A stretch of DNA of 64,000 nucleotides from Escherichia coli (GCF_024700885.2 NZ_CP117016.1), one strand, 5' to 3'; numbered from the stretch's first letter, positions 3,472-61,700 are shown. The notes: generated from the letters alone by a model not told the origin. Translations and numbers: made by a program.

Positions 3472-7018
<3,547 letters not shown>

Positions 7019-7039
7019 ATAGCGCAATATTTCATCGTT

Positions 7040-7078
7040 GGTGCAAAAATGTAACGCACTGTGCACTGTCATAGTGCG
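7040..7078 (+). promoter_or_regulatory. Putative NtrC enhancer-like dyads upstream of glnK, overlapping the mdlB terminator hairpin
   Basis: TGCAC...GTGCG dyad TGCACTGTCATAGTGCG at 7062..7078 followed by a T-tract at 7079..7088; a second partial dyad around 7041..7060; resembles the NtrC consensus TGCACC-N-GGTGCA. Confidence 0.4.
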
Positions 7079-7130
7079 TTTTTGTTTTCAATCTTCTTAA
7101 CTTCCTGCTCTCCTTCTCGTTTTTCATTTC

Positions 7131-7146
7131 TGGCACACCGCTTGCA
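7131..7146 (+). promoter_or_regulatory. Sigma-54 (-24/-12) promoter of glnK-amtB
   Basis: TGGCAC-N5-TTGCA exact match to the sigma-54 consensus, about 55 nt upstream of the glnK ATG. Confidence 0.85.
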
Positions 7147-7198
7147 ATACCTTCTTCGTGTAGCAGAACCATTACCGAATTCTGACCGGAGGGGATCT

Positions 7199-7537
7199 AT
7201 GAAGCTGGTGACCGTGATAATCAAACCATTCAAGCTGGAAGACGTTCGTGAAGCGTTATCTTCCATTGGTATTCAGGGCCTGACCGTCACCGAAGTGAAA
7301 GGTTTCGGGCGTCAGAAAGGGCATGCCGAGCTGTACCGGGGAGCGGAATACAGCGTCAACTTTCTGCCAAAAGTAAAAATTGATGTGGCGATTGCTGATG
7401 ACCAACTCGATGAAGTGATCGATATCGTCAGTAAGGCGGCTTACACCGGAAAAATTGGCGACGGCAAAATCTTTGTCGCTGAATTGCAACGCGTCATTCG
7501 TATTCGTACCGGCGAAGCCGACGAAGCGGCGCTGTAA
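7199..7537 (+). CDS. glnK: PII nitrogen regulatory protein GlnK
   Basis: 112-aa product MKLVTVIIKPFKLEDVREAL... with T-loop GRQKGHAELYRGAEY; start at ATG 7199 inside track ORF 7061..7537. Confidence 0.95.
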   Translation: MKLVTVIIKPFKLEDVREALSSIGIQGLTVTEVKGFGRQKGHAELYRGAEYSVNFLPKVKIDVAIADDQLDEVIDIVSKAAYTGKIGDGKIFVAELQRVIRIRTGEADEAAL

Positions 7538-7566: not shown

Positions 7567-8853
7567 ATGAAGATAGCGACGATAAAAACTGGGCTTGCTT
7601 CACTGGCGATGCTGCCGGGACTGGTAATGGCTGCACCTGCGGTGGCCGATAAAGCCGACAATGCGTTTATGATGATCTGTACTGCGCTGGTGCTGTTTAT
7701 GACTATTCCGGGGATTGCCCTGTTTTACGGTGGGTTGATTCGCGGCAAAAACGTGCTGTCGATGCTGACGCAGGTGACGGTGACGTTTGCACTGGTCTGT
7801 ATTCTCTGGGTGGTTTACGGTTACTCGCTGGCGTTTGGTGAGGGCAACAACTTCTTCGGCAACATTAACTGGCTGATGCTGAAAAACATCGAACTGACGG
7901 CGGTGATGGGCAGCATTTATCAGTATATTCACGTAGCGTTTCAGGGATCGTTTGCCTGCATTACCGTAGGCTTGATAGTTGGGGCGCTGGCGGAACGAAT
8001 CCGCTTCTCAGCTGTGTTGATTTTCGTGGTGGTATGGCTGACGCTCTCCTACATTCCGATTGCGCATATGGTCTGGGGCGGCGGTTTGCTGGCTTCTCAC
8101 GGTGCACTGGATTTCGCGGGTGGCACGGTGGTCCACATTAACGCCGCAATCGCCGGTCTGGTGGGCGCATATCTGGTAGGCAAACGCGTGGGCTTCGGCA
8201 AAGAGGCGTTTAAACCGCACAACCTGCCGATGGTCTTCACCGGGACTGCCATTCTCTATATCGGTTGGTTTGGCTTTAATGCCGGGTCAGCGGGCACGGC
8301 GAATGAAATCGCAGCACTGGCATTTGTGAATACTGTGGTCGCAACGGCGGCGGCAATTCTTGGCTGGATCTTCGGTGAATGGGCGCTGCGTGGTAAGCCT
8401 TCACTGCTGGGAGCGTGTTCAGGCGCGATTGCCGGTCTGGTCGGCGTGACGCCAGCGTGTGGCTACATTGGTGTTGGCGGCGCGTTGATTATCGGCGTGG
8501 TAGCTGGTCTGGCGGGCTTGTGGGGCGTTACCATGCTCAAACGCTTGTTGCGGGTGGATGATCCCTGCGATGTCTTTGGTGTGCACGGCGTTTGTGGCAT
8601 TGTCGGCTGTATCATGACCGGGATTTTTGCCGCCAGCTCGCTGGGCGGCGTGGGCTTCGCTGAAGGTGTGACGATGGGCCATCAGTTGCTGGTACAGCTG
8701 GAAAGCATCGCCATTACGATCGTCTGGTCCGGTGTGGTGGCATTTATTGGCTACAAACTGGCGGATCTGACGGTTGGCCTGCGTGTGCCGGAAGAACAGG
8801 AGCGAGAAGGGCTGGATGTCAACAGCCACGGCGAGAATGCATATAACGCGTAA
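7567..8853 (+). CDS. amtB: Ammonium channel AmtB
   Basis: 428-aa polytopic membrane protein with signal peptide, immediately downstream of glnK (conserved glnK-amtB operon). Confidence 0.95.
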   Translation: MKIATIKTGLASLAMLPGLVMAAPAVADKADNAFMMICTALVLFMTIPGIALFYGGLIRGKNVLSMLTQVTVTFALVCILWVVYGYSLAFGEGNNFFGNINWLMLKNIELTAVMGSIYQYIHVAFQGSFACITVGLIVGALAERIRFSAVLIFVVVWLTLSYIPIAHMVWGGGLLASHGALDFAGGTVVHINAAIAGLVGAYLVGKRVGFGKEAFKPHNLPMVFTGTAILYIGWFGFNAGSAGTANEIAALAFVNTVVATAAAILGWIFGEWALRGKPSLLGACSGAIAGLVGVTPACGYIGVGGALIIGVVAGLAGLWGVTMLKRLLRVDDPCDVFGVHGVCGIVGCIMTGIFAASSLGGVGFAEGVTMGHQLLVQLESIAITIVWSGVVAFIGYKLADLTVGLRVPEEQEREGLDVNSHGENAYNA

Positions 8854-11048: not shown

Positions 11049-11162
11049 GGGGGCTCTGTTGGTTCTCCCGCAACGCTACTCTGTTTACCAGGTCAGGTCC
11101 GGAAGGAAGCAGCCAAGGCAGATGACGCGTGTGCCGGGATGTAGCTGGCAGGGCCCCCACCC
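11049..11162 (+). ncRNA. ffs: 4.5S RNA (SRP RNA) ffs
   Basis: GGGGGCTCTGTTGGTTCTCCCGCAACGCTACTCTGTTTACCAGGTCAGGTCCGGAAGGAAGCAGCCAAGGCAGATGACGCGTGTGCCGGGATGTAGCTGGCAGGGCCCCCACC matches the recalled E. coli 4.5S RNA, including the conserved SRP domain IV GGAAGGAAGCAGCC motif. Confidence 0.93.
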
Positions 11163-26692: not shown

Positions 26693-28624
26693 ATGAGTTA
26701 TCAGGTCTTAGCCCGAAAATGGCGCCCACAAACCTTTGCTGACGTCGTCGGCCAGGAACATGTGCTGACCGCACTGGCGAACGGCTTGTCGTTAGGGCGT
26801 ATTCATCATGCTTATCTTTTTTCCGGCACCCGTGGCGTCGGAAAAACCTCTATCGCCCGACTGCTGGCGAAGGGGCTAAACTGCGAAACCGGCATTACCG
26901 CGACGCCGTGCGGCGTGTGCGATAACTGTCGTGAAATCGAGCAGGGGCGCTTTGTCGATCTGATTGAAATCGACGCCGCCTCGCGCACCAAAGTTGAAGA
27001 CACTCGCGACCTGCTGGATAACGTCCAGTACGCTCCGGCGCGTGGTCGTTTCAAAGTTTATCTGATCGACGAAGTGCATATGCTGTCGCGCCACAGCTTT
27101 AACGCACTGTTAAAAACCCTTGAAGAGCCGCCGGAGCACGTTAAGTTTCTGCTGGCGACGACCGATCCGCAGAAATTGCCGGTGACGATTTTGTCGCGCT
27201 GTCTGCAATTCCATCTCAAGGCGCTGGATGTCGAGCAAATTCGCCATCAGCTTGAACACATCCTCAACGAAGAACATATCGCTCACGAGCCGCGGGCGCT
27301 GCAATTGCTGGCGCGCGCCGCTGAAGGCAGCCTGCGAGATGCCTTAAGTCTGACCGACCAGGCGATTGCCAGCGGTGACGGCCAGGTTTCAACTCAGGCG
27401 GTCAGTGCGATGCTGGGTACGCTTGACGACGATCAGGCGCTGTCGCTGGTTGAAGCGATGGTCGAGGCCAACGGCGAGCGCGTAATGGCGCTGATTAATG
27501 AAGCCGCTGCCCGTGGTATCGAGTGGGAAGCGTTGCTGGTGGAAATGCTCGGTCTGTTGCATCGTATTGCGATGGTACAACTTTCGCCTGCTGCACTTGG
27601 CAACGACATGGCCGCCATCGAGCTGCGGATGCGTGAACTGGCGCGCACCATACCGCCGACGGATATTCAGCTTTACTATCAGACGCTGTTGATTGGTCGC
27701 AAAGAATTACCGTATGCGCCAGACCGCCGTATGGGCGTTGAGATGACGCTGCTTCGTGCGCTGGCGTTCCATCCGCGTATGCCGCTGCCTGAGCCAGAAG
27801 TGCCACGCCAGTCCTTTGCGCCCGTCGCGCCAACGGCAGTAATGACGCCAACCCAGGTGCCGCCGCAACCGCAATCAGCGCCGCAGCAGGCACCGACTGT
27901 ACCGCTCCCGGAAACCACCAGCCAGGTGCTGGCGGCGCGCCAGCAGTTGCAGCGCGTGCAGGGAGCAACCAAAGCAAAAAAGAGTGAACCGGCAGCCGCT
28001 ACCCGCGCGCGGCCGGTGAATAACGCTGCGCTGGAAAGACTGGCTTCGGTCACCGATCGCGTTCAGGCGCGTCCGGTGCCATCGGCGCTGGAAAAAGCGC
28101 CAGCCAAAAAAGAAGCGTATCGCTGGAAGGCCACCACTCCAGTGATGCAGCAAAAAGAAGTGGTCGCCACGCCGAAGGCGCTAAAAAAAGCGCTGGAACA
28201 TGAAAAAACGCCGGAACTGGCGGCGAAGCTGGCGGCAGAAGCCATTGAGCGCGACCCGTGGGCGGCACAGGTGAGCCAACTTTCGCTACCAAAACTGGTC
28301 GAACAGGTGGCCTTAAATGCCTGGAAAGAGGAGAGCGACAACGCAGTATGTCTGCATTTGCGCTCCTCTCAGCGGCATTTGAACAACCGCGGCGCACAGC
28401 AAAAACTGGCTGAAGCGTTGAGCACGTTAAAAGGTTCAACGGTTGAACTGACTATCGTTGAAGATGATAATCCCGCGGTGCGTACGCCGCTGGAATGGCG
28501 TCAGGCGATATACGAAGAAAAACTTGCGCAGGCGCGCGAGTCCATTATTGCGGATAATAATATTCAGACCCTGCGTCGATTCTTCGATGCGGAGCTGGAT
28601 GAAGAAAGTATCCGCCCCATTTGA
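26693..28624 (+). CDS. dnaX: DNA polymerase III tau subunit (full length); the gamma subunit is made from the same start by -1 frameshifting
   Basis: 643-aa ORF; Walker A GTRGVGKTS, Zn-binding CGVCDNC. Confidence 0.96.
   Translation: MSYQVLARKWRPQTFADVVGQEHVLTALANGLSLGRIHHAYLFSGTRGVGKTSIARLLAKGLNCETGITATPCGVCDNCREIEQGRFVDLIEIDAASRTKVEDTRDLLDNVQYAPARGRFKVYLIDEVHMLSRHSFNALLKTLEEPPEHVKFLLATTDPQKLPVTILSRCLQFHLKALDVEQIRHQLEHILNEEHIAHEPRALQLLARAAEGSLRDALSLTDQAIASGDGQVSTQAVSAMLGTLDDDQALSLVEAMVEANGERVMALINEAAARGIEWEALLVEMLGLLHRIAMVQLSPAALGNDMAAIELRMRELARTIPPTDIQLYYQTLLIGRKELPYAPDRRMGVEMTLLRALAFHPRMPLPEPEVPRQSFAPVAPTAVMTPTQVPPQPQSAPQQAPTVPLPETTSQVLAARQQLQRVQGATKAKKSEPAAATRARPVNNAALERLASVTDRVQARPVPSALEKAPAKKEAYRWKATTPVMQQKEVVATPKALKKALEHEKTPELAAKLAAEAIERDPWAAQVSQLSLPKLVEQVALNAWKEESDNAVCLHLRSSQRHLNNRGAQQKLAEALSTLKGSTVELTIVEDDNPAVRTPLEWRQAIYEEKLAQARESIIADNNIQTLRRFFDAELDEESIRPI
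27976..28016 (+). other. dnaX: dnaX programmed -1 ribosomal frameshift site (slippery heptamer plus downstream stem-loop) yielding gamma
   Basis: A AAA AAG at 27976..27982 in the dnaX frame (codons GCA AAA AAG); the -1 frame reads GAG TGA (Glu, stop) directly after; GC-rich stem-loop CCGGCAGCCGC...GCGCGGCCGG at 27989..28016. Confidence 0.9.
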
Positions 28625-35940: not shown

Positions 35941-36046
35941 GTAGGCCAGATAAGGCGTTCACGCCGTATCTGGCATTTTGCTCTCAATGCCTGATGCGAC
36001 GCTGGCGCGTCTTATCATGCCTACATATCCGCGCCTATTATCCGGC
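35941..36046. repeat. REP/BIME cluster between gsk and ybaL
   Basis: GTAGGCCAGATAAGGCGTTCACGCCGTATCTGGC and GCCTGATGCGACGCTGGCGCGTCTTATCATGCCTAC are REP-type palindromes. Confidence 0.8.
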
Positions 36047-41697: not shown

Positions 41698-41781
41698 ACA
41701 CCGTCGCTTAAAGTGACGGCATAATAATAAAAATATGAAATTCCTCTTTGACGGGCCAATAGCGATATTGGCCATTTTTTT
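41698..41781 (+). ncRNA. chiX: Small regulatory RNA ChiX (MicM/SroB)
   Basis: ACACCGTCGCTTAAAGTGACGGCATAATAATAAAAATATGAAATTCCTCTTTGACGGGCCAATAGCGATATTGGCCATTTTTTT matches the recalled ChiX sequence; ends in an intrinsic terminator (GGCCAATAGCGATATTGGCC plus T7) that abuts the convergent ybaP stop. Confidence 0.88.
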
Positions 41782-49798: not shown

Positions 49799-52700
49799 AT
49801 GAGCCTGATTATTGATGTTATTTCGCGTAAAACATCCGTCAAACAAACGCTGATTAATCCTGGCGACGTCACGGTTGTTATTTATGAGCCTTCCGTGGTG
49901 CAGGTTCATGCTCAGGCCTCTGCCGTTTCGCGTTACGTCCGTGAAGGAAATGACCTGCTGATCTATATGCAGGACGGCACGGTGATCCGTTGCAACGGTT
50001 ATTTCCTGCAAGCGGCGAATACCGCTGAACAATCGGAACTGGTGTTTGCCGATGGGCAACAGCTAACCCATGTCACCTTTGCCGATACTGCTGCGGGTGG
50101 TTTAGCCCCCGTAGAACTGACTGCCCAGACCACTGCGATTGAAAGCATTGCGCCATTTCTTGATACCGTTGCTCAGACCAGCGCCTTCCCGTGGGGTTGG
50201 CTGGCGGGGGCGGCGGTAGGTGGTGGTGCGCTTGGTGCACTGCTGGCAAGCGGTGGTGATGGCGACTCGAAAACGGAAGTGATTAATAACCCTACGCCAC
50301 CCGCTGAGCCTGGCAACGCCACACCATCATTTTTAGTTACCGATAATCAGGGCGATCAGCGCGGCATTCTCGCCACCAATGACATCACCGATGACACCAC
50401 GCCAACCTTTAGCGGCAGCGGGCAGGCGGGGGCGACTATTCAGATTAAAGACAGTAACGGCAATACTATTGCCAGTACTCAGGTAGACAACAACGGTCAC
50501 TGGAGTGTCTCGTTACCCACGCAAAGTGCAGGTGAACATACCTGGTCAGTGGTGCAAATTGTCGGCAGTACCATCACTGACGCCGGTTCGATAACGTTAA
50601 CCATCGACAATAGTCAGGCCAGCGTGCAGGTTGCCACCACCGCAGGCGATAACATTATTAACGCCAGCGAACAGGCCGCCGGGTTTACGCTTTCTGGTAC
50701 CAGTAGCCATCTGGCGCAGGGAACAGAACTCACCGTTACGCTAAACGGCAAAACCTACACCACCAGCGTAGGCGCTAACGGTGCCTGGAGCGTGCAGGTA
50801 CCGACCGCCGATGCGCAGGCGTTAGGCGAAGGGAATCAGGCAGTGCTGGTCAGCGGGAAAGACGCCACAGGCAATACGGTCACCGGCGCGCAGCTTTTAA
50901 CGGTCGATACCCAACCGCCAACGCTTGCCATCAACACTATCGCTCAGGACAACATCGTCAGTGCTGCGGAACATAACGCCGCGCTGGTACTGAGCGGCAC
51001 TTCGAATGCAGAAGCGGGGCAAACCGTAACCCTGACCGTCAACGGGAAAAGCCATTCAGTAACCGTCGGTAGCGATGGAACCTGGCAAGTGACGCTGCCT
51101 GCCACGGAGGTACAGGCACTGGCGGAGGGGAACTACGCTGTCAATGCCAGTGTCAGCGATCGGGCAGGAAACACCACCAGCAACAGCGCGAATTTCACGG
51201 TAGACACCTCAGCACCCGTGGTCAGCGTTAACACCGTGGCGGGCGACGATATTCTTAATAATGCTGAGCAGGCCGTCGCGCAGATCATCTCCGGACAAGT
51301 CAGCGGTGCTTCTCCTGGCGATACGGTAACGGTGAAATTGGGCACTCATGTCCTGACGGGCATTGTGCTGGCAGATGGCAGCTGGAATGTGGCGCTGGAC
51401 CCAGCGGTAACCCGCACGCTGGATCGCGGAGCCAATACGATTTTCGTCACCGTGACAGATACTGCAGGAAATACCGGCGCGGCGTCTCGAGCAATCACGC
51501 TGGTCGGTGTCTCTCCGTTAATCACCATTAACACCGTCTCCGGCGATGACATTATCAGTGGCGCAGAAAAAGGTGCGCCACTGACCCTTACCGGTAGCAC
51601 TCAACAGGCCGAGACAGGACAAACCGTCACAGTAACCCTGGCTGGACAGAGTTTTACTACTACCGTGCAGGCTGATGGCTCCTGGAGTCTGACGGTACCT
51701 GCCGCCGCGATGGGAAATCTGCCTGACGGCGCGGTGGCGATTACCGCTTCTGTGACGGATCTCAGCGGCAATACCGGCAACACCTCTCGCACCATTACCG
51801 TCGACAGCCAGGCCCCGGCCTTAAGCATCGATCCACTGACCGCCGATAACATCATCAACGCCACCGAAAGCGGGCAGGATCTGCAAATCACCGGCACCAC
51901 CGACGCTCAGCCAGGGCAGACGGTGACCGTTACGTTGAATGGGCAGACCTATCAGGGCGTCGTGCAGTCCGACGGCACCTGGAGCGTGACCGTTCCCGCC
52001 GCCAACGTTGGCGCACTGGCTGACGGCAACGCTACGGTCACCGCCAGCGTGAACGATGTTGCCGGTAATCCGAGCAGCGTCTCACGCGTGGCGCTGGTCG
52101 ATGCCACGCCGCCGGTGGTAACCATTAATCCGGTGGCGACCGATAACGTCATCAACACGCCGGAACACACCCAGGCGCAAATCATCAGCGGCACGGTTAC
52201 TGGCGCTCAGGCGGGCGATATCGTCACCGTGACGCTGAATAATGTGGATTACACCACGGTGGTGGATGGTTCCGGCAACTGGAGTCTGGGTGTTCCGGCT
52301 TCCGTTGTCAGCGGACTGGTGGATGGCAGTTATCCGATCAACGTGTCAGTGACTGACCGCGCCGGAAACACGGGCAGCCAGTCACTGACTGTCACGGTCA
52401 ATACCGCCGCGCCAGTAATTGGTATTAACACCATTGCTGGCGATGATGTGATAAACGCCAGCGAAAAAGGGGCTGATGTCCAGATTACCGGTACCAGCGA
52501 TCAGCCAGCCAATACCGCCATCACCGTGACGCTGAACGGGCAAAATTACACCACCACGACCGACGCCTCCGGCAACTGGAGCGTCACCGTTCCGGCATCG
52601 GCGGTAACCGCACTGGGCCAGGCCAACTACACGGTAACGGCGGCGGTGACGAGTAATATCGGCAACAGCGCCACCGCCAGCCATAACGTGCTGGTTGACA

Positions 52701-55700
52701 GCGCGCTGCCCGGCGTGACCATTAACCCGGTGGCAACCGACGATATTATTAACGCCGCCGAAGCGGGCGTCGCGCAAACCATCAGCGGGCAGGTGACTGG
52801 AGCCGCCGTTGGCGACGCGGTAACCGTTACGCTGGGTGGCAATACCTACACCACCACCGTACAGCCGGGATTAAGCTGGAGCGTGAGCATTCCGGCGGAC
52901 GCTATTCAGGCGCTGGGTAATGGCGATTTAACGGTGAGCGCCTCGGTCACCAATCAAAACGGCAACACCGGCAGCGGCACGCGGGATATCACCATCGACG
53001 CCAATCTGCCCGGTCTGCGGGTCGATACGGTGGCAGGCGATGATGTGGTCAATATCATCGAGCACGGGCAGGCGCTGGTGGTCAGCGGCAGCAGCTCGGG
53101 GCTGGCTGAAGGCACGCCGCTTACCGTTACGATTAACAATGTGGAATACACCACTGCGGTGCAGGCCGATGGTAGCTGGAGCGTGGGCGTCACGGCGGCG
53201 CAGGTTAGCGCCTGGCCTGCGGGAACAGTAACGGTTACCGTGTCCGGGGAAAGTAGCGCCGAAAATCCGGTGAGCATTACGCATCCGGTTATGGTCGATC
53301 TCACTCCGGCGGCGATCACCATCAACACCATCGCCACGGATGATGTGATTAACGCCACAGAAAAAGGCGCTGATTTAACCCTTTCCGGCACCACCACTAA
53401 CGTAGAATCCGGTCAAACCGTCACCGTCACCTTTGGCGGGAAAAATTACACTGCCAGCGTGGCGAGCGATGGTAGCTGGGCTGCCACCGTTCCCGCCGCC
53501 GATCTGGCAGCATTACCAGAGGGCAGCGCCTCCGCGCAGGCCAGCGTCAGCAATATTAACGGCAATAGCGCCTCGGCGGTGCATAACTACAGCGTCGACA
53601 GCAGTGTCCCGACCATCATTATCAATACCGTTGCCAGCGACAATATCGTCAACGCCAGCGAAGCCGATGCGGGTGTGACGGTGAGCGGCAGCACCACTGC
53701 CGAGGCAGGGCAGATTGTTACGATAACGCTCAATAGCCCGACCGTGCAGACGTATCAGGCAACGGTACAGGCCGACGGTAGCTGGAGTATTAATATTCCG
53801 GCGGCAGATCTTGAGGCATTGACCGATGGCAGCCACACCCTGACCGCCACGGTCAATGACAAAGCAGGCAACCCGGCGAGCACCACGCATAATCTGGCGG
53901 TGGATCTCACCGTTCCGGTACTCACCATCAACACCATTGCGGGCGACGATATTATTAACGCCGCCGAACACGGGCAGGCGCTGGTGATTTCCGGTTCCAG
54001 CACTGGCGGAGAAGCGGGGGATGTCGTCACCGTCACGCTAAACAGTAAAACCTACACCACGACGCTGGATGCCTCCGGCAACTGGAGCGTCGGCGTTCCG
54101 GCGGCGGATGTCACGGCGCTGGGCAGCGGCCCGCAAACTGTCACCGCCAGCATTACCGACGCGGCAGGCAATAGCGATGATGCCAGCCGCACGGTTACAG
54201 TGAATCTGACCGCGCCGACCATTGGCATTAACACCATCGCCACCGATGACGTGATTAACGCCATCGAAAAAGGCGCGGATCTGCAAATTTCCGGCACCAG
54301 TAATCAGCCAGCTGGCACCACAATTACGCTGACGCTGAACGGGCAAAATTACACTGCCACGACGGACGCCGCAGGCAACTGGAGCACCACGGTGCCAGCC
54401 TCCGCCGTCAGTGCGCTGGGCGAAGCCAGTTATACGGTGACGGCGAATGTCACCGACAGCGCGGGTAACAGTAATTCCGCCAGCCATAACGTGCAGGTGA
54501 ATACCGCACTGCCTGGCGTCACCCTTAATCCGGTGGCGAGCGACGACATTATTAACGCCGCCGAATCGGGCGTGGCGCAGACCATCAGCGGGCAGGTGAC
54601 GGGCGCGGCGGCGGGCGATACGGTTACCGTAACGCTTGGCGGGAAAACCTACACCACTACCGTGCAGGGCAATTTAAGCTGGAGCGTGGGCGTTCCGGCG
54701 GCGGATATTCAGGCCATCGGCAATGGCGACCTGACAGTTAATGCCTCGGTGACCAACGGCGTTGGTAATACCGGCAGCGGTTCGCGAGATATTACTATCG
54801 ACGCTAATTTGCCTGGCCTGCGCGTCGATACCGTGGCGGGCGATGATGTGGTCAACAGCATCGAGCACGGTCAGGCACTGGTGATAACCGGTAGCAGCAG
54901 CGGGCTGGCGGCGGGCGCGGCGCTGACGGTGGTGATCAATAACGTCACCTACGGCGCGACGGTATTAGCCGATGGTACATGGAGCCTTGGCGTTCCAGCG
55001 GCAGATGTGGGCAACTGGCCTGCGGGTACGGTGAATATCACGGTTTCAGGTGCCACTAGCGCAGGAAACCCGGTCACTATCACCCATCCGGTCACCGTCG
55101 ATCTGGCGGCGGTGGCGATCTCCATTAACACCGTTTCCGGCGACGATGTGATTAACGCCGCCGAAAAAGGGGCAGATTTAACCCTTTCCGGCAGCACTTC
55201 CGGCGTGGAAGCGGGACAAACCGTCACCGTCACCTTTGGCGGTAAAACCTACACCGCCACCGTAGCGGGCGATGGTAGCTGGACAACCACCGTACCCGCC
55301 GCCGATCTCAGCGCGTTACGCGACGGCGACGCCACGGTACAGGCCAGCGTCAGCAATATTAACGGCAACACGGCTTCGGCGACCCACGCCTACAGCGTCG
55401 ATGCCACGGCACCGACGCTTGCCATTAACACCATCGCCACTGACGATATTCTGAACGCCGCCGAGGCGGGCAATCCGCTAACCATCAGCGGCAGTAGCAC
55501 CGCCGAAGCGGGGCAGACGGTAACTGTCACGCTTAATGGCGTGACTTACACCGGCACCGTCCTGGCGGACGGGAGCTGGAGCGTCAGCGTGCCGACGGCG
55601 GATCTCAGCAATCTGACCGCCAGCCAGTACACGGTCAGCGCCTCGGTAAGCGATAAAGCGGGTAACCCGGCAACCGCCACTCATGGGCTGGCGGTGGATC

Positions 55701-58700
55701 TCACCGTTCCCGTATTAACCATCAACACCGTCTCCGGCGATGACATTATTAACGCCGCCGAACACGGGCAGGCGCTGGTAATCTCCGGTTCCAGCGCTGG
55801 CGGCGAAGCGGGCGATGTCATCACCGTTACGTTAAACAGTAAAACCTATACCACCACGCTGGACGCTTCCGGCAACTGGAGCGTCGGCGTTCCGCTGTCA
55901 GATGTCACTGCGCTGGGCAGCGGCCCGCAAACCATCACAGCTACCATTACCGACGCGGCAGGCAACAGCGATGATGCCAGCCGCACGGTCACCGTGAATC
56001 TCACCGCGCCAACCATTGGTATCAACACTATCGCCAGCGATGACGTGATTAACGCCACGGAAAAAGGCGCGGATCTGCAAATTACCGGCACCAGTAATCA
56101 ACCCGCAGGCACCACAATAACGGTGACGCTGAACGGGCAAAATTACACCGCGACGACCGATTCCTCCGGCAACTGGAGCGCCACGGTGCCTGCCTCGGCA
56201 GTTAGCGCGCTGGGTGAGGCCAATTACACGGTAACCGCCGCCGCTACTGACGCCGATGGCAACAGCGGTTCCGCCAGCCATAACGTACAGGTTAATACCG
56301 CGCTGCCTGGCGTCACCATTAACGTGGTGGCAACGGACGATATTATTAACGCTGCCGAAGCAGGGACAGATCAAACTATCAGCGGGCAGGTGACGGGGGC
56401 TACGGCAGGCGATACGGTGACCGTCACGCTCGGCGGGGCGACTTACACTGCCACGGTGCAGGCGAATTTAAGCTGGAGCGTCGATGTTCCGGCCTCCGCG
56501 CTACAGGCGTTGGGCAACGGTGAGCTGACCATTTCGGCTTCGGTAACGAACAGCGTAGGCAATACCGGTAACGGCACGCGTGAAATCACCATCGACGCGA
56601 ATCTGCCCGGTCTGCGGATTGACACCGTGGCGGGCGATGACGTGGTCAATATTATCGAGCACGGACAGGCGCTGGTGATTACCGGCAGCAGCTCCGATCT
56701 GGCAGCGGGCAGCAACGTCACGCTGACCATTAACGGGCAAACCTATGTTGCGGCGGTACTGGCGGATGGCTCATGGAGCGTCGGCGTTCCGGCGGCAGAT
56801 GTCAGCGCCTGGCCTGCGGGGACGGTCACAATTACGGCGAGCGGCAACACCACCGCCGGAAATCCGGTCAGCGTTACGCATCCGGTGACTGTCGATCTCA
56901 CTGCGGTGGCGGTCAGCATCAACGCCATTACTGCCGATGACGTGATTAACGCTGCCGAAAAAGGCGCGGCGTTAACGCTCTCTGGCAGCACTTCTGGTGT
57001 GGAGGCCGGGCAAACGGTCACCGTCACCTTTGGCGGCAAAACTTACAGCGCCACGGTGGCTGCGAATGGTTCCTGGAGCACCTCGGTTCCGGCGGCAGAT
57101 ATGGCGGCCCTGCGTGATGGCGATGCCAGCGCACAGGCCAGAGTCAGCAATGTTAACGGCAACAGCGCCACCACTACTCACGCTTACAGCGTCGATGCCA
57201 GCGCGCCAACGGTGGCCATTAACACTATTGCAGGCGACGATATTCTTAACGCCGCCGAAGCGGGTGCTGCGCTGACTATCACTGGCAGCAGCACGGCGGA
57301 AGCGGGGCAGACGGTGACCGTCACCCTCAATGGCGAAAACTATACTGGCACGGTTCAAACGGACGGTAGCTGGAGCGTCAGCGTACCGCCAGCCGACTTA
57401 AGCGCCCTGACCGCCAGCAACTACACCGTTAGTGCGGCGGTGAGCGACAAAGCCGGAAACCCGGCCTCGGTTAATCACAACCTGACGGTGGATACGTCTG
57501 TTCCGGTTGTCACCATCAACACGGTGGCGGGCGATGATGTGATCAACGCGACGGAACACGCCCAGGCGCAGATTATCAGCGGCTCCGCCACGGGTGCGGC
57601 AACCGGCAGCACCGTGACGGTGACTATCGGCAGCACCACCTTCACCACCGTGCTGGACGCCAGCGGTAACTGGAGCGTCGGCGTTCCGGCAAGCGTCGTC
57701 TCGGCGCTGGCGAACGGCACGGTGACCATTAACGCCAGCGTCACCGATGCCGCCGGAAACAGCGGCAGCGCCACGCATCAGGTGACGGTCAATACTGGCC
57801 TGCCGTCAATTACCTTTAACGCCATCAGCGGCGATAACGTCCTGAACGCCGATGAAAAAGGCCAGCCGTTGACCATTAGCGGTAGCAGTACGGGGCTGGC
57901 GACGGGCGCGCAGGTCACCGTCACGCTCAACGGTCATAACTACAGCGCCACCACCGACGCGGCGGGCAACTGGACCTTAACCGTGCCGGTGAGCGATCTG
58001 GCGGCTCTGGGTCAGGCCAACTATACCGTCAGCGCCAGTGCCACCAGTGCGGCGGGTAACACCGCCAGCAGCCAGGCGAATTTACTGGTCGATAGCGGCC
58101 TGCCGGGCGTTACCATCAACACCGTGGCGGGCGATGATATTATCAACGCCGCCGAAGCCGGGGCCGATCAAACCATCAGCGGGGTGGTGACTCGCGCCGC
58201 CGCTGGCGATACGGTCACCGTGACGCTGGGCGGCAACACTTACACAGCGCAGGTTCAGCCCGATTTAAGTTGGAGCGTCACCGTTCCGGCAGACGATTTA
58301 CAGGCGTTGGGCAATGGCGATTTGACCATTAACGCCTCGGTTACCAACGCGAATGGCAACACTGGCAGCGGCTCGCGGGATATCACCATTGATGCCAACC
58401 TGCCGGGTCTGCGCGTGGATACCGTGGCGGGCGATGATATCGTCAACAGTATCGAGCACGGGCAGGCGCTGGTGATCACCGGCGGCAGTAGCGGCCTGAA
58501 TGCAGGTGCTGTGCTGACGGTTACCATCAACAGTGTGGCGTATTCCACCACGGTACAGGCGGACGGGAGCTGGAGCGTTGGCATTCCGGCGGCAAACGTC
58601 AGCGCCTGGCCTGCGGGGCCGTTAACCGTTGAAGTTACAGGACAGAGCAGCGCCGGAAACCCAGTCAGCGTCAGCCATCCGTTCACCGTCGATTTAACGG

Positions 58701-61700
58701 CGGTGGCAATCAGCATCAACACCGTTGCCAGCGATGACGTAATTAACGCCGCCGAAAAAGGCACTGGTCTGACCCTTTCCGGCAGCACCAGCGGGATTGA
58801 AAGCGGGCAAACCGTTACCGTCACTTTTGGCGGTAAAACCTACACTGCAAGCGTCGCCGCCAACGGTAGCTGGAGTGTGAACGTTCCAGCGGCAGATCTG
58901 GCAACTCTGCCAGACGGCGCGGCGAACGTGCAGGCTAGTGTCAGCAGCGCGAGCGGTAACAGTGCCTCGGCGACCCATGCGTATAGCGTTGACGCCAGCG
59001 CACCGACGCTCACCATTAACACCATTGCCAGCGACGATATTCTTAACGCCACGGAGGCGGGAAGCCCGCTCACCATCAGCGGCACCAGCACCGCCGAAAC
59101 CGGGCAGACGGTCACCGTGACCCTTAACGGCGCAACCTACACCGGCAATGTGCAGGCGGACGGTAGCTGGAGCGTCAGCGTTCCCACTTCAGCCCTGGGC
59201 GTGCTAAGTGCAAGCAATTACACCGTCAGCGCCACGGTCAACGACAAAGCGGGCAACCCCGGCAGCGCCAGCCATAATCTGGCGGTAGACACCACCGCGC
59301 CGGTTCTCACCATTAACACCGTGGCGGGCGATGACATCATCAACGACGCCGAACACGGGCAGGCGCTGGTGATTTCTGGCACCAGCACGGGCGGGGAAGC
59401 GGGCGATGTGGTGAGCGTTGTGCTCAACGGCAAAACCTACACCACCACCCTGGATGCCTCCGGCAACTGGAGCGTTGGCGTTCCGGCGGCGGATGTTACG
59501 GCACTGGGTAGCGGCGCACAGACCATCACCGCCAGCGTCAGCGATCGGGCGGGTAACAGCGATGACGCCAGCCGCACCGTGACCGTCAGCCTCAGCGCGC
59601 CAGTGATTAGCATCAACACCATCGCGGGCGATGATGTGATCAACGCGACGGAAAAAGGATCTGATCTGGCGCTTTCCGGCACCAGCGATCAGCCTGCGGG
59701 TACGGCGATCACCGTCACCCTGAACGGACAAAACTACAGCGCCACTACCGACGCCTCCGGCAACTGGAGCGTCACCGTGCCCGCCTCGGCGGTCAGTGCG
59801 CTGGGCGAAGCCACCTACAGCGTCACGGCGAGCGTTACCAATGCTCAGGGTAACAGCAGCACCGCCAGCCATAACGTGCAGGTCAATACCGCGCTGCCGG
59901 GCGTCACCATTAATCCGGTGGCGACGGACGATATTATCAACGCTTCAGAGGCGGGCAGCGCGCAAACTATCAGCGGCCAGGTAACCGGTGCGGCGGCGGG
60001 TAGCATCGTCACCGTTGAACTGGGCGGTAAAACTTACACCGCCACCGTCCAGCCAGATTTAAGCTGGAATGTGAGCGTACCAGCCGCCGACTGGCAGGCG
60101 TTAGGTAATGGTGAGTTAACGGTTAATGCCTCGGTAACCAACGCCGTTGGCAACACCGGTAGCGGCACGCGCGATATCACCATCGACGCCAGTCTGCCTG
60201 GCCTGCGGGTGGATACCGTTGCAGGCGATGATGTGGTCAATATCATCGAACATGCTCAGGCGCAGGTGATTACTGGCACCAGCTCTGGCTTTGCGGCGGG
60301 CACGGCGCTGACGGTGGTGATAAATAACCAAACTTATGCCGCCACGGTGCTGGCGAATGGTACCTGGAGCGTCGGCGTACCGGCGGCGGATGTCAGTAAC
60401 TGGCCTGCGGGAACGCTGAACATTACCGTTAGCGGCGCGAACAGTGCCGGAACGCAAACCAGCATTACCCATCCGCTGACAGTTGATCTCAGCACTGTCG
60501 CCGTCAGCATAAACAGCATCACCAGCGATGATGTGATTAACGCCGCCGAAAAAGGCGCGGCATTAACGCTCTCCGGCAGCACGTCCGGCGTCGAAGCGGG
60601 GCAAGCCGTTACCATTACTTTTGGCGGTAAAACCTACACCACCACGGTGGCGGCAAACGGTAGCTGGAGCACCACCGTTCCGGCGGCGGATATGGCGGCC
60701 CTGCGTGACGGCGATGCCAGCGCCCAGGTGCGGGTGACTAACGTCAACGGCAACAGCGCCACGGCAACGCATGAATACAGCGTCGATAGCGCCGCGCCAA
60801 CGGTGACCATCAATACCATTGCCAGTGATAACATCATCAACGCCAGCGAAGCGGCGGCGGGCGTGACGGTATCCGGCACCAGCACGGCGGAGGCAGGGCA
60901 GACGCTGACCGTCACGCTTAATGGCACTAACTACCAGACCACGGTGCAGGCAGACGGCAGCTGGAGTTTAACGCTGCCCGCCAGCGACTTAACCGCACTT
61001 GCCAATAACGGCTACACCCTGACCGCCACGGTCAGCGATTTGGCGGGTAACCCTGGCAGCGCCAGCAAAGGTGTGACCGTCGATACCACCGCGCCCGTCA
61101 TCAGCTTTAACACCGTGGCGGGCGACGATGTGATTAACAACGTTGAACACACTCAGGCGCAGATTATCAGCGGCACCGCCTCGGGCGCGGTGGCGGGCGA
61201 CCGCCTGGTGGTGACCATCGCCGGGCAGCAGTATGTCACCAGCACCGATGCCAGCGGCAACTGGAGCGTTGGCGTGCCTGCCAGCGTGATTTCCGGCCTT
61301 GCGGACGGCACAGTGACTATCAGCGCCACTGTCACCGATAGCGCAGGCAACAGCAGCACGCAGACGCACAACGTGCAGGTGAACACGGCGGCAGTGTCGC
61401 TCTCGGTCAGCACCATCAGCGGCGATAACCTTATTAACGCCGCCGAAGCAGGCAGTGCGCTGACCCTGAGCGGCACCGGAACGAACTTTGCCGCAGGTAC
61501 AGTAGTGACCGTGTTGCTTAACGGCAAAGGCTACAGCGCTACCATTCAGAGCAACGGGAGCTGGAGCGTGAACGTGCCGGCGGCAGACGTTGCGGCGCTT
61601 GCCGATGGCACCAGCTACACGGTCAGCGCTTCCGCCCAGGACAGCGCCGGAAACAGCGCCACGGCTTCGCGCAGTGTGGCGGTGGATCTCACCGCGCCGA

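Follow-up and report, generated by a model that had tools for sequence, protein, structure and literature searches.

The 180-bp spacer between mdlB and glnK in the stretch of Escherichia coli DNA analysed here (64,000 nucleotides from GCF_024700885.2, NZ_CP117016.1; hereafter the window) very probably contains an unusually compact form of the glnK-amtB promoter already known to depend on NtrC and sigma-54, in which the NtrC-type dyads share bases with a predicted mdlB terminator. The glnK-amtB operon is a textbook NtrC target, and its promoter, glnKp, is widely used as an NtrC reporter and as a synthetic-biology part; nothing reported here therefore changes the general picture. The module is already known, and the overlap is a neat detail of it, accompanied by a small comparative refinement. 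The locus is the same as that of glnKp in E. coli K-12, which was reportedly described by van Heeswijk in 1996 and by Atkinson in 2002 as the NtrC/sigma-54-dependent promoter of glnK-amtB, and the window holds an allele of it from a non-K-12 strain in which the U-run differs.

The gene order in this region is decR-mdlA-mdlB-glnK-amtB, followed by tesB on the opposite strand, according to the annotation of one identical E. coli record. The upstream gene, mdlB (5237-7018, plus strand; stop codon TGA at 7016-7018), encodes an SmdB-family ABC exporter, as indicated by the RefSeq annotation of a 100% identical stretch in strain 2012C-4502, the list of open reading frames (ORFs), and tblastn synteny in Enterobacterales. 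Downstream and on the same strand lie glnK (7199-7537; ORF list and RefSeq annotation), which encodes a PII-type nitrogen regulator of 112 amino acids, and amtB (7567-8853; ORF list, annotation, and synteny), which encodes the ammonium transporter of 428 amino acids and is co-transcribed with glnK. The Shine-Dalgarno sequence of glnK, GGAGGGG, is found at 7189-7195 on the plus strand, and its GGAG is invariant in the orthologues. A longer ORF at 7061-7537 also appears in the list, where it is a mere in-frame upstream extension of glnK and was not taken as real. The region is nearly universal in the species: a 401-base query around the glnK promoter found a match in 5423 of 5426 complete E. coli genomes, with the spacer present at 95% identity or more, and it was 100% identical to several non-K-12 strains, the features beneath it being mdlB and glnK. 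Four of the 180 spacer positions differ from MG1655 (7083, 7084, 7092, and 7113), none of which falls in a dyad, in the stem of the hairpin, in the sigma-54 element, or in the Shine-Dalgarno sequence; the variation within E. coli spares the dyads, the stem, and the promoter core.

The sigma-54 (-24/-12) promoter element of glnK-amtB, TGGCAC-ACCGC-TTGCA, is located at 7131-7146 on the plus strand. This sequence, TGGCACACCGCTTGCA, is the sole exact match to TGGCAC-N5-TTGCA in the whole window, against 0.10 matches expected from shuffled sequences (at least one match in 8 of 100 shuffles). When one mismatch is allowed, two matches are found and 2.5 are expected; matches of this kind are thus at chance level and only the exact one is informative. 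The GG and GC doublets of the element are exactly one helical turn apart. Its distance to the ATG of glnK at 7199 is 52 nt, close to the 55 nt or so proposed in the first-pass annotation, and a transcription start predicted near 7157, 19 bp past the motif centre (7138), would give a 42-nt leader. The element is also conserved: TGGCA and TTGC are invariant in ten Enterobacteriaceae, and a sigma-54 element precedes glnK in 16 of 16 Enterobacterales loci from other genomes. For most Pseudomonas loci and other distant ones, the 450 bp preceding glnK gave no hit in the same pattern search. From an experimental point of view, the 17-mer CTGGCACACCGCTTGCA upstream of glnK was found to be bound by sigma-54 in K-12 ChIP-seq (FAT 18), at a time when EcoCyc flagged the glnK promoter as predicted only (PMC4591121), and the motif of the window is likewise identical to the bound motifs given in PMC8743547, for binding in vitro, and in PMC2831329. 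The perfect element announced by the first-pass annotation is, in consequence, exact, unique in the window, and the same as the published bound K-12 sequence. Whether the sigma-54 holoenzyme, NtrC, or the two together are used, genomic SELEX (gSELEX) recovers the mdlB/glnK spacer (PMC8743547).

The dependence of this promoter on NtrC has been published at the level of the region. Under nitrogen starvation, NtrC gives a ChIP-seq peak in the region upstream of glnK-amtB, and deletion of glnG abolishes the glnK mRNA, which complementation brings back (PMC4066584). In addition, a 400-fold NtrC-specific activation of glnKp has been reported (PMC3870243). The published 80-bp NtrC ChIP-seq bin (PMC4066584) maps to 7118-7198 of the window, where it covers the promoter and lies 40 bp past the dyads, and thus it confirms the region rather than placing the dyad bases.

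The candidate enhancer consists of two tandem 17-bp dyads. The distal one, site 1 (TGCAAAAATGTAACGCA, 7042-7058), is centred at 7050, about -107 with respect to the start, and matches the NtrC consensus at 9 of 14 positions; NtrC binding to it is suggested by its sequence and conservation. The proximal one, site 2 (TGCACTGTCATAGTGCG, 7062-7078), is centred at 7070, about -87, and matches at 10 of 14, with conservation and helical phase as additional indications. The bases of the half-sites are GGTGCA (7040-7045) and ACGCAC (7054-7059) for the first, and TGCAC (7062-7066) and GTGCG (7074-7078) for the second. Measured from the sigma-54 element, these dyads span 53-91 bp upstream, where about 60-90 bp had previously been proposed. 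No paper printing the dyad sequences was found in a full-text literature search.

The consensus used for scoring was TGCACCAnnnTGGTGCA, as quoted in PMC8743547, with 14 scored positions. It is important to note that 211 17-mers of the 64-kb window reach at least 9 of 14, so the two dyads do not rise above chance by their scores alone; the top-scoring 17-mers of the window, with 12 of 14, belong to the repeats of the adhesin gene siiEA that contain TACACCACnnnGGTGCA. As consensus scanning does not discriminate, conservation and spacing were relied on instead, and it is the position, the tandem spacing, and the conservation that lift the dyads, as well as the terminator pattern, above chance. 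The scores were calibrated with the glnA upstream region of MG1655, where the strong NtrC sites of glnAp2 have been published with centres at -140 and -108, together with low-affinity sites (PMC1865078). In this calibration, which also provides the coordinates of about -107 and -87 for the glnK dyads, the strong sites reach 13 and 12 of 14, and two further 17-mers, in the region of the reported low-affinity 'governor' sites of glnAp2, score 9. With scores of 9 and 10, the glnK dyads are similar to these weak glnAp2 sites and look like NtrC sites of low affinity, in line with published work (summarised in PMC3870243) in which glnK activation has to await a rise in NtrC~P.

The comparison between species was based on a one-genome-per-species scan with GlnK, which returned 79 loci; distances and phases were analysed in 16 Enterobacterales loci. 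The order mdlB-glnK-amtB is found in all the Enterobacterales among the 79 loci except the Orbaceae locus. An alignment of the spacers of ten Enterobacteriaceae reveals a few invariant clusters: CGC at 7055-7057, TGCAC at 7062-7066, T.GTGCGTTTT at 7072-7082, the TGGCA/TTGC of the promoter, and the Shine-Dalgarno sequence. The DNA between the enhancer and the promoter, which in the window is a CT- and T-rich segment (7089-7130) over which the loop would form, is unalignable and of variable length in these ten spacers, and its length and sequence vary between genera. Both half-sites of site 2, TGCAC and GTGCG, are invariant in the ten Enterobacteriaceae, and its orthologues score 10 to 13 of 14 in 15 Enterobacterales loci (for instance TGCACCAGCATGGTGCG in Superficieibacter). 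In Escherichia, Citrobacter, and two of the three Enterobacter loci, site 1 keeps the sequence GGTGCAAAAAnGTAACGCA; its middle part diverges in Enterobacter Ag1 and Superficieibacter, it takes the form TGCAC-N7-GACGCG in Yersinia artesiana and CGCAC-N7-GACGCA in Y. aldovae, and it could not be recognised in Photorhabdus or Klebsiella sp. BIGb0407. The centres of the two sites are 20 bp apart in Escherichia, Citrobacter, Enterobacter, Superficieibacter, Yersinia, Rahnella, and Acerihabitans, a spacing that puts them on one face of the DNA, as the assembly of an NtrC oligomer requires.

Between the centre of site 2 and the GG of the -24 element, the spacing falls into five classes: 62 bp in Escherichia, 72 bp in Citrobacter, 93 bp in Superficieibacter, 105-106 bp in Klebsiella sp. 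BIGb0407 and Photorhabdus, and 115-117 bp in Enterobacter, Yersinia, Acerihabitans, and Rahnella. These classes are coherent in helical phase, with a mean resultant length of 0.85 at 10.5 bp per turn and of 0.93 at 10.8-11. A Monte Carlo phase test in which the repeat was left free over 10.4-11.2 gave p ~0.009, a value that refers to five classes only and to a pattern tested after it had been seen. The preservation of phase across such different lengths is what one would predict for dyads that have to face the closed complex over a short loop, and would be hard to explain if they were only part of a terminator; the glnK spacers would illustrate phase-constrained looping at short range. The distance classes also share the phase of the strong glnAp2 sites. 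Both promoters have tandem 17-bp NtrC-type dyads upstream of a sigma-54 element, in the same phase with respect to the -24 GG (115 and 83 bp in glnAp2, 82 and 62 bp in glnK). They differ in that the strong sites of glnAp2 score 13 and 12 of 14 and are separated by 32 bp, whereas those of glnK score 9 and 10 and are separated by 20 bp, and in that the glnAp2 enhancer overlaps the sigma-70 promoter glnAp1, while that of glnK overlaps a predicted terminator hairpin. Taken together, the conserved tandem dyads in phase with the -24 element, and the region-level NtrC binding and dependence published by others, bear out the NtrC-activated architecture suggested in the first-pass annotation, and the dyads at 7042-7058 and 7062-7078 are supported as the NtrC enhancer, with base-level contacts that are presumed from the sequence.

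A different possibility is that the hairpin described below is the mdlB terminator and nothing else, and that the working NtrC sites lie elsewhere, for example at 6860-6876 or 7010-7026. NtrC is able to act at a distance, chance alone often yields 9-10 of 14, and the 17-mer GACACCATTCTGGTGCT at 6860-6876, inside mdlB, is conserved in relatives and, with 11 of 14, surpasses both intergenic dyads. Nevertheless, the GCA core that PMC8743547 describes as conserved is missing from its left half, and the conservation of this 17-mer is probably due to coding, since it encodes the conserved ABC-ATPase stretch DTILVLH. The intergenic dyads, on the contrary, hold their helical phase with the -24 element through length changes of 10 to 55 bp, and they persist, nearer to the consensus, in genera where no T-run follows them. 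We consequently regard a location of the working sites elsewhere as highly improbable. The sequence at 7010-7026, across the mdlB stop codon, was considered as a third NtrC site and rejected, as it is not conserved even in E. albertii.

Two further sequence features of the spacer were noticed. First, another NtrC-like 17-mer (e.g., TGCACCAAAATCAGGCG) is present about 62 bp upstream of the proximal dyad in three Enterobacter loci, Yersinia artesiana, and Acerihabitans (L005-L007, L010, and L011), so the longer spacers may belong to three-site enhancers; no counterpart of this extra 17-mer was found in E. coli. Second, a 13-nt T-tract direct repeat occurs as CGTTTTTGTTTTC at 7077-7089 and CGTTTTTCATTTC at 7118-7130, 41 bp or about four helical turns apart. 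The pair brackets the spacer between enhancer and promoter, and the Enterobacteriaceae conserve the copy that adjoins the -24 element (TTTTTYATTYC-TGGCA). Such an arrangement hints at intrinsic bending or an upstream contact; a bend that aids the loop is speculation. No match to the IHF consensus with two or fewer mismatches was found in 7031-7160, and an IHF-assisted loop is therefore not supported.

The second function assigned to the same bases is the termination of mdlAB transcription. An inverted repeat pairs 7053-7063 with 7070-7080 in a stem of 11 pairs (five of them G-C) with a 6-nt loop at 7064-7069, and is followed by TTTTTGTTTT, a T-run at 7079-7088; the whole, 7053-7088 on the plus strand, is the predicted intrinsic terminator of mdlB. 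The hairpin was called by both a terminator scan and a repeat finder, and it begins 35 nt past the mdlB stop codon. Loose terminator patterns are common, with four found against 3.1 expected in 2.5 kb. The RNA of 7019-7095 folds with -20.1 kcal/mol (z -2.4; a value reached by 4 of 200 shuffles), and the 28-nt hairpin at 7053-7080 alone with -14.4 kcal/mol. In the stable stem, the right half of site 1, the inter-site spacer, and the first bases of site 2 pair with the right half of site 2; the self-pairing of TGCAC with GTGCG within site 2 is an alternative fold of only -6.4 kcal/mol. Accordingly, the earlier proposal that the dyads double as the mdlB terminator hairpin holds for the overlap, which is real and conserved in Enterobacteriaceae, but not for the stem, which is not made of the TGCAC and GTGCG of one dyad. 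With respect to canonical Rho-independent terminators, the 11-pair stem, the 6-nt loop, the immediate U-run, and the position 35 nt past a stop codon are all typical, and what differs is that the arms of the predicted stem double as half-sites for the activator of the next operon.

The hairpin is paired in 92.7% of the cells of the alignment of ten Enterobacteriaceae, while controls slid along it reach 25-66%. As much of the stem is also constrained by NtrC, this conservation constitutes modest evidence for a terminator. In this sense, an alternative has to be considered in which the dyads are a true NtrC enhancer and the hairpin is a by-product of closely placed, near-palindromic half-sites that does not terminate mdlAB transcription; termination would then be Rho-dependent or would not occur at all, and the read-through would be neutralised by the anti-Shine-Dalgarno insulator discussed below. 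Any NtrC dyad folds as RNA, as site 2 does by itself, and just one pair of the stem covaries. That pair, 7060:7073, is T-A in five sequences and C-G in the other five, and position 7060 lies in the 3-bp gap between the dyads, where no NtrC constraint is known. The same observation speaks against a by-product, since the stem includes the inter-site bases 7059-7061, which are not known to be constrained by NtrC, and one of them varies together with its partner. Likewise, at least five T directly follow the stem in 10 of 10 Enterobacteriaceae sequences, although the spacer that comes after is unalignable, and a hairpin of -14.4 kcal/mol with a U-run satisfies the usual description of an intrinsic terminator. 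In Enterobacter sp. BIGb0383, this hairpin is likewise predicted to be a terminator.

Outside the Enterobacteriaceae the situation is different. No T-run follows the dyad in Yersinia, Rahnella, Acerihabitans, or Photorhabdus; all four keep the proximal dyad, and the first three retain the distal one too. No intrinsic terminator was detected anywhere in the Yersinia and Rahnella spacers scanned, which indicates that a terminator at this place is not indispensable; in Photorhabdus, a separate hairpin is located just downstream. The dyads without a T-run in Yersinia, Rahnella, and Acerihabitans favour the by-product explanation, as do the Term-seq supplements of PMC7815308, where no mdlB or glnK entry was found among the 3' ends, and the published insulator against read-through, whose existence suggests that read-through happens. 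A full-text literature search combining mdlB, glnK, and terminator returned nothing relevant. Considering both sides, we judge it unlikely that the hairpin is devoid of terminator function: 7053-7088, predicted and conserved, most likely terminates mdlAB transcription. As far as the sequences sampled indicate, the proximal dyad is common to all the Enterobacterales and the distal one to most of them, while the predicted terminator overlay is present only in the Enterobacteriaceae, and it would thus be a later addition to ancient enhancer dyads of the Enterobacterales. As a side observation, the U-run of the window, TTTTTGTTTT (UUUUUGUUUU), differs at 7083-7084 from that of K-12, TTTTCATTTT (UUUUCAUUUU). 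The K-12 version is present in MG1655 and in four other E. coli sampled, and E. albertii has the version of the window, whose longer uninterrupted U-run could allow more efficient termination.

A further barrier to read-through has been described at the translational level. Levy et al. report that a 50-bp glnKp core, if transcription enters it from upstream, silences the gene behind it. The effect is rpoN-independent and relies on the pairing of CT-rich stretches with the Shine-Dalgarno sequence, of which the decisive one is centred at about -4 (bioRxiv 10.1101/086108). In the window, the corresponding CT-rich anti-Shine-Dalgarno stretch is CCTTCTTC at 7150-7157 on the plus strand. In the fold of a read-through RNA (7090-7230), CCUUCUUC at 7150-7157 pairs with the GGAGGGG region; glnKp is the founding example of these sigma-54-promoter insulators. 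In an RNA that begins at 7158, the CT stretch is absent and most of the Shine-Dalgarno sequence is unpaired. The energy of the read-through fold has a z of +0.4, so what is predicted is a local pairing and not a stable domain. The CT stretch, with its published activity and the pairing reproduced here in folding models, would then constitute a second barrier to read-through, placed after the terminator and acting only in read-through RNA. The work of Levy et al. differs from the native locus in that the 50-bp core was studied in synthetic contexts; in the chromosome, the insulator would come into play after the hairpin. A text search of bioRxiv 10.1101/086108 for a terminator found none mentioned.

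According to these data, the following mechanism can be proposed, the enhancer steps of which are deduced from sequence, conservation, and helical phasing. The closed complex of RNA polymerase and sigma-54 would sit on 7131-7146, where occupancy has been published by K-12 ChIP-seq. Upon nitrogen limitation, NtrC~P would assemble on the weak dyads centred at 7050 and 7070 and loop over about 60 bp of T-tract- and CT-rich DNA to give the open complex, with transcription starting near 7157. In the mdlAB RNA, the same bases would form the 11-bp hairpin followed by the U-run, leading to termination 35-70 nt past the mdlB stop codon, so that nitrogen-independent read-through is kept from glnK-amtB. 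The transcripts that escape would carry CCUUCUUC, able to pair with the glnK Shine-Dalgarno sequence, while the RNA started at the promoter would be free of this stretch.

A stronger version of the overlap can also be envisaged, in which the sharing of bases between enhancer and terminator is an evolved fusion, specific to the Enterobacteriaceae, with regulatory consequences of its own. An NtrC~P oligomer bound to the terminator DNA would act as a roadblock that sharpens mdlAB termination in nitrogen starvation; conversely, mdlAB transcription would sweep NtrC off the enhancer; and the spacer would contract only in whole helical turns (from 116 to 105, 93, 72, and 62 bp), with Escherichia as the compact extreme. 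The restriction of the overlay to one lineage and the phase-preserving length classes may bear on such a fusion, while its cross-talk part is conjecture. All in all, we consider this version improbable.

The modest comparative addition to the known module would comprise three points: dyads that are ancient in the Enterobacterales, a terminator overlay acquired later, and a distance from enhancer to promoter that has shifted only by roughly whole helical turns. In functional terms, three stacked barriers would oppose nitrogen-independent expression of glnK-amtB: the predicted terminator, the anti-Shine-Dalgarno insulator, and a promoter that depends on an activator. There is also a practical implication, as cloned 'glnK UAS' fragments bring with them a terminator-like hairpin.

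Some observations of minor scope were made in the course of the analysis. An Rfam scan of 6900-7300 found no RNA family. Elsewhere in the window, four Rfam matches exceed the gathering score, namely the small SRP RNA (ffs, 11057-11153), the dnaX frameshift element (27957-28021), naRNA4 (35944-36021), and sroB (41698-41781), all of which are expected for the E. coli chromosome here. In one E. coli isolate (L086, NZ_OZ040756.1), the glnK leader carries, at the equivalent of window position 7185 approximately, what looks like a terminal repeat of IS1. The insert sits between the sigma-54 promoter and the Shine-Dalgarno sequence, and it would uncouple glnK-amtB from its promoter. At the other end of the window, an open frame of more than 4700 codons (49799-64000) that runs off the window end encodes a BapA-related adhesin. 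It is annotated as siiEA in identical genomes, is an accessory gene (959 of 5426 E. coli genomes), and contains 12 Big_13 repeat stretches and a BapA_N domain in its first 2000 residues. Inside this gene, at 62852-62867 on the minus strand, lies TGGCACCGACGTTGCC, a sigma-54-like element with one mismatch, which is probably due to chance, since about 2.5 such matches are predicted by the shuffles.
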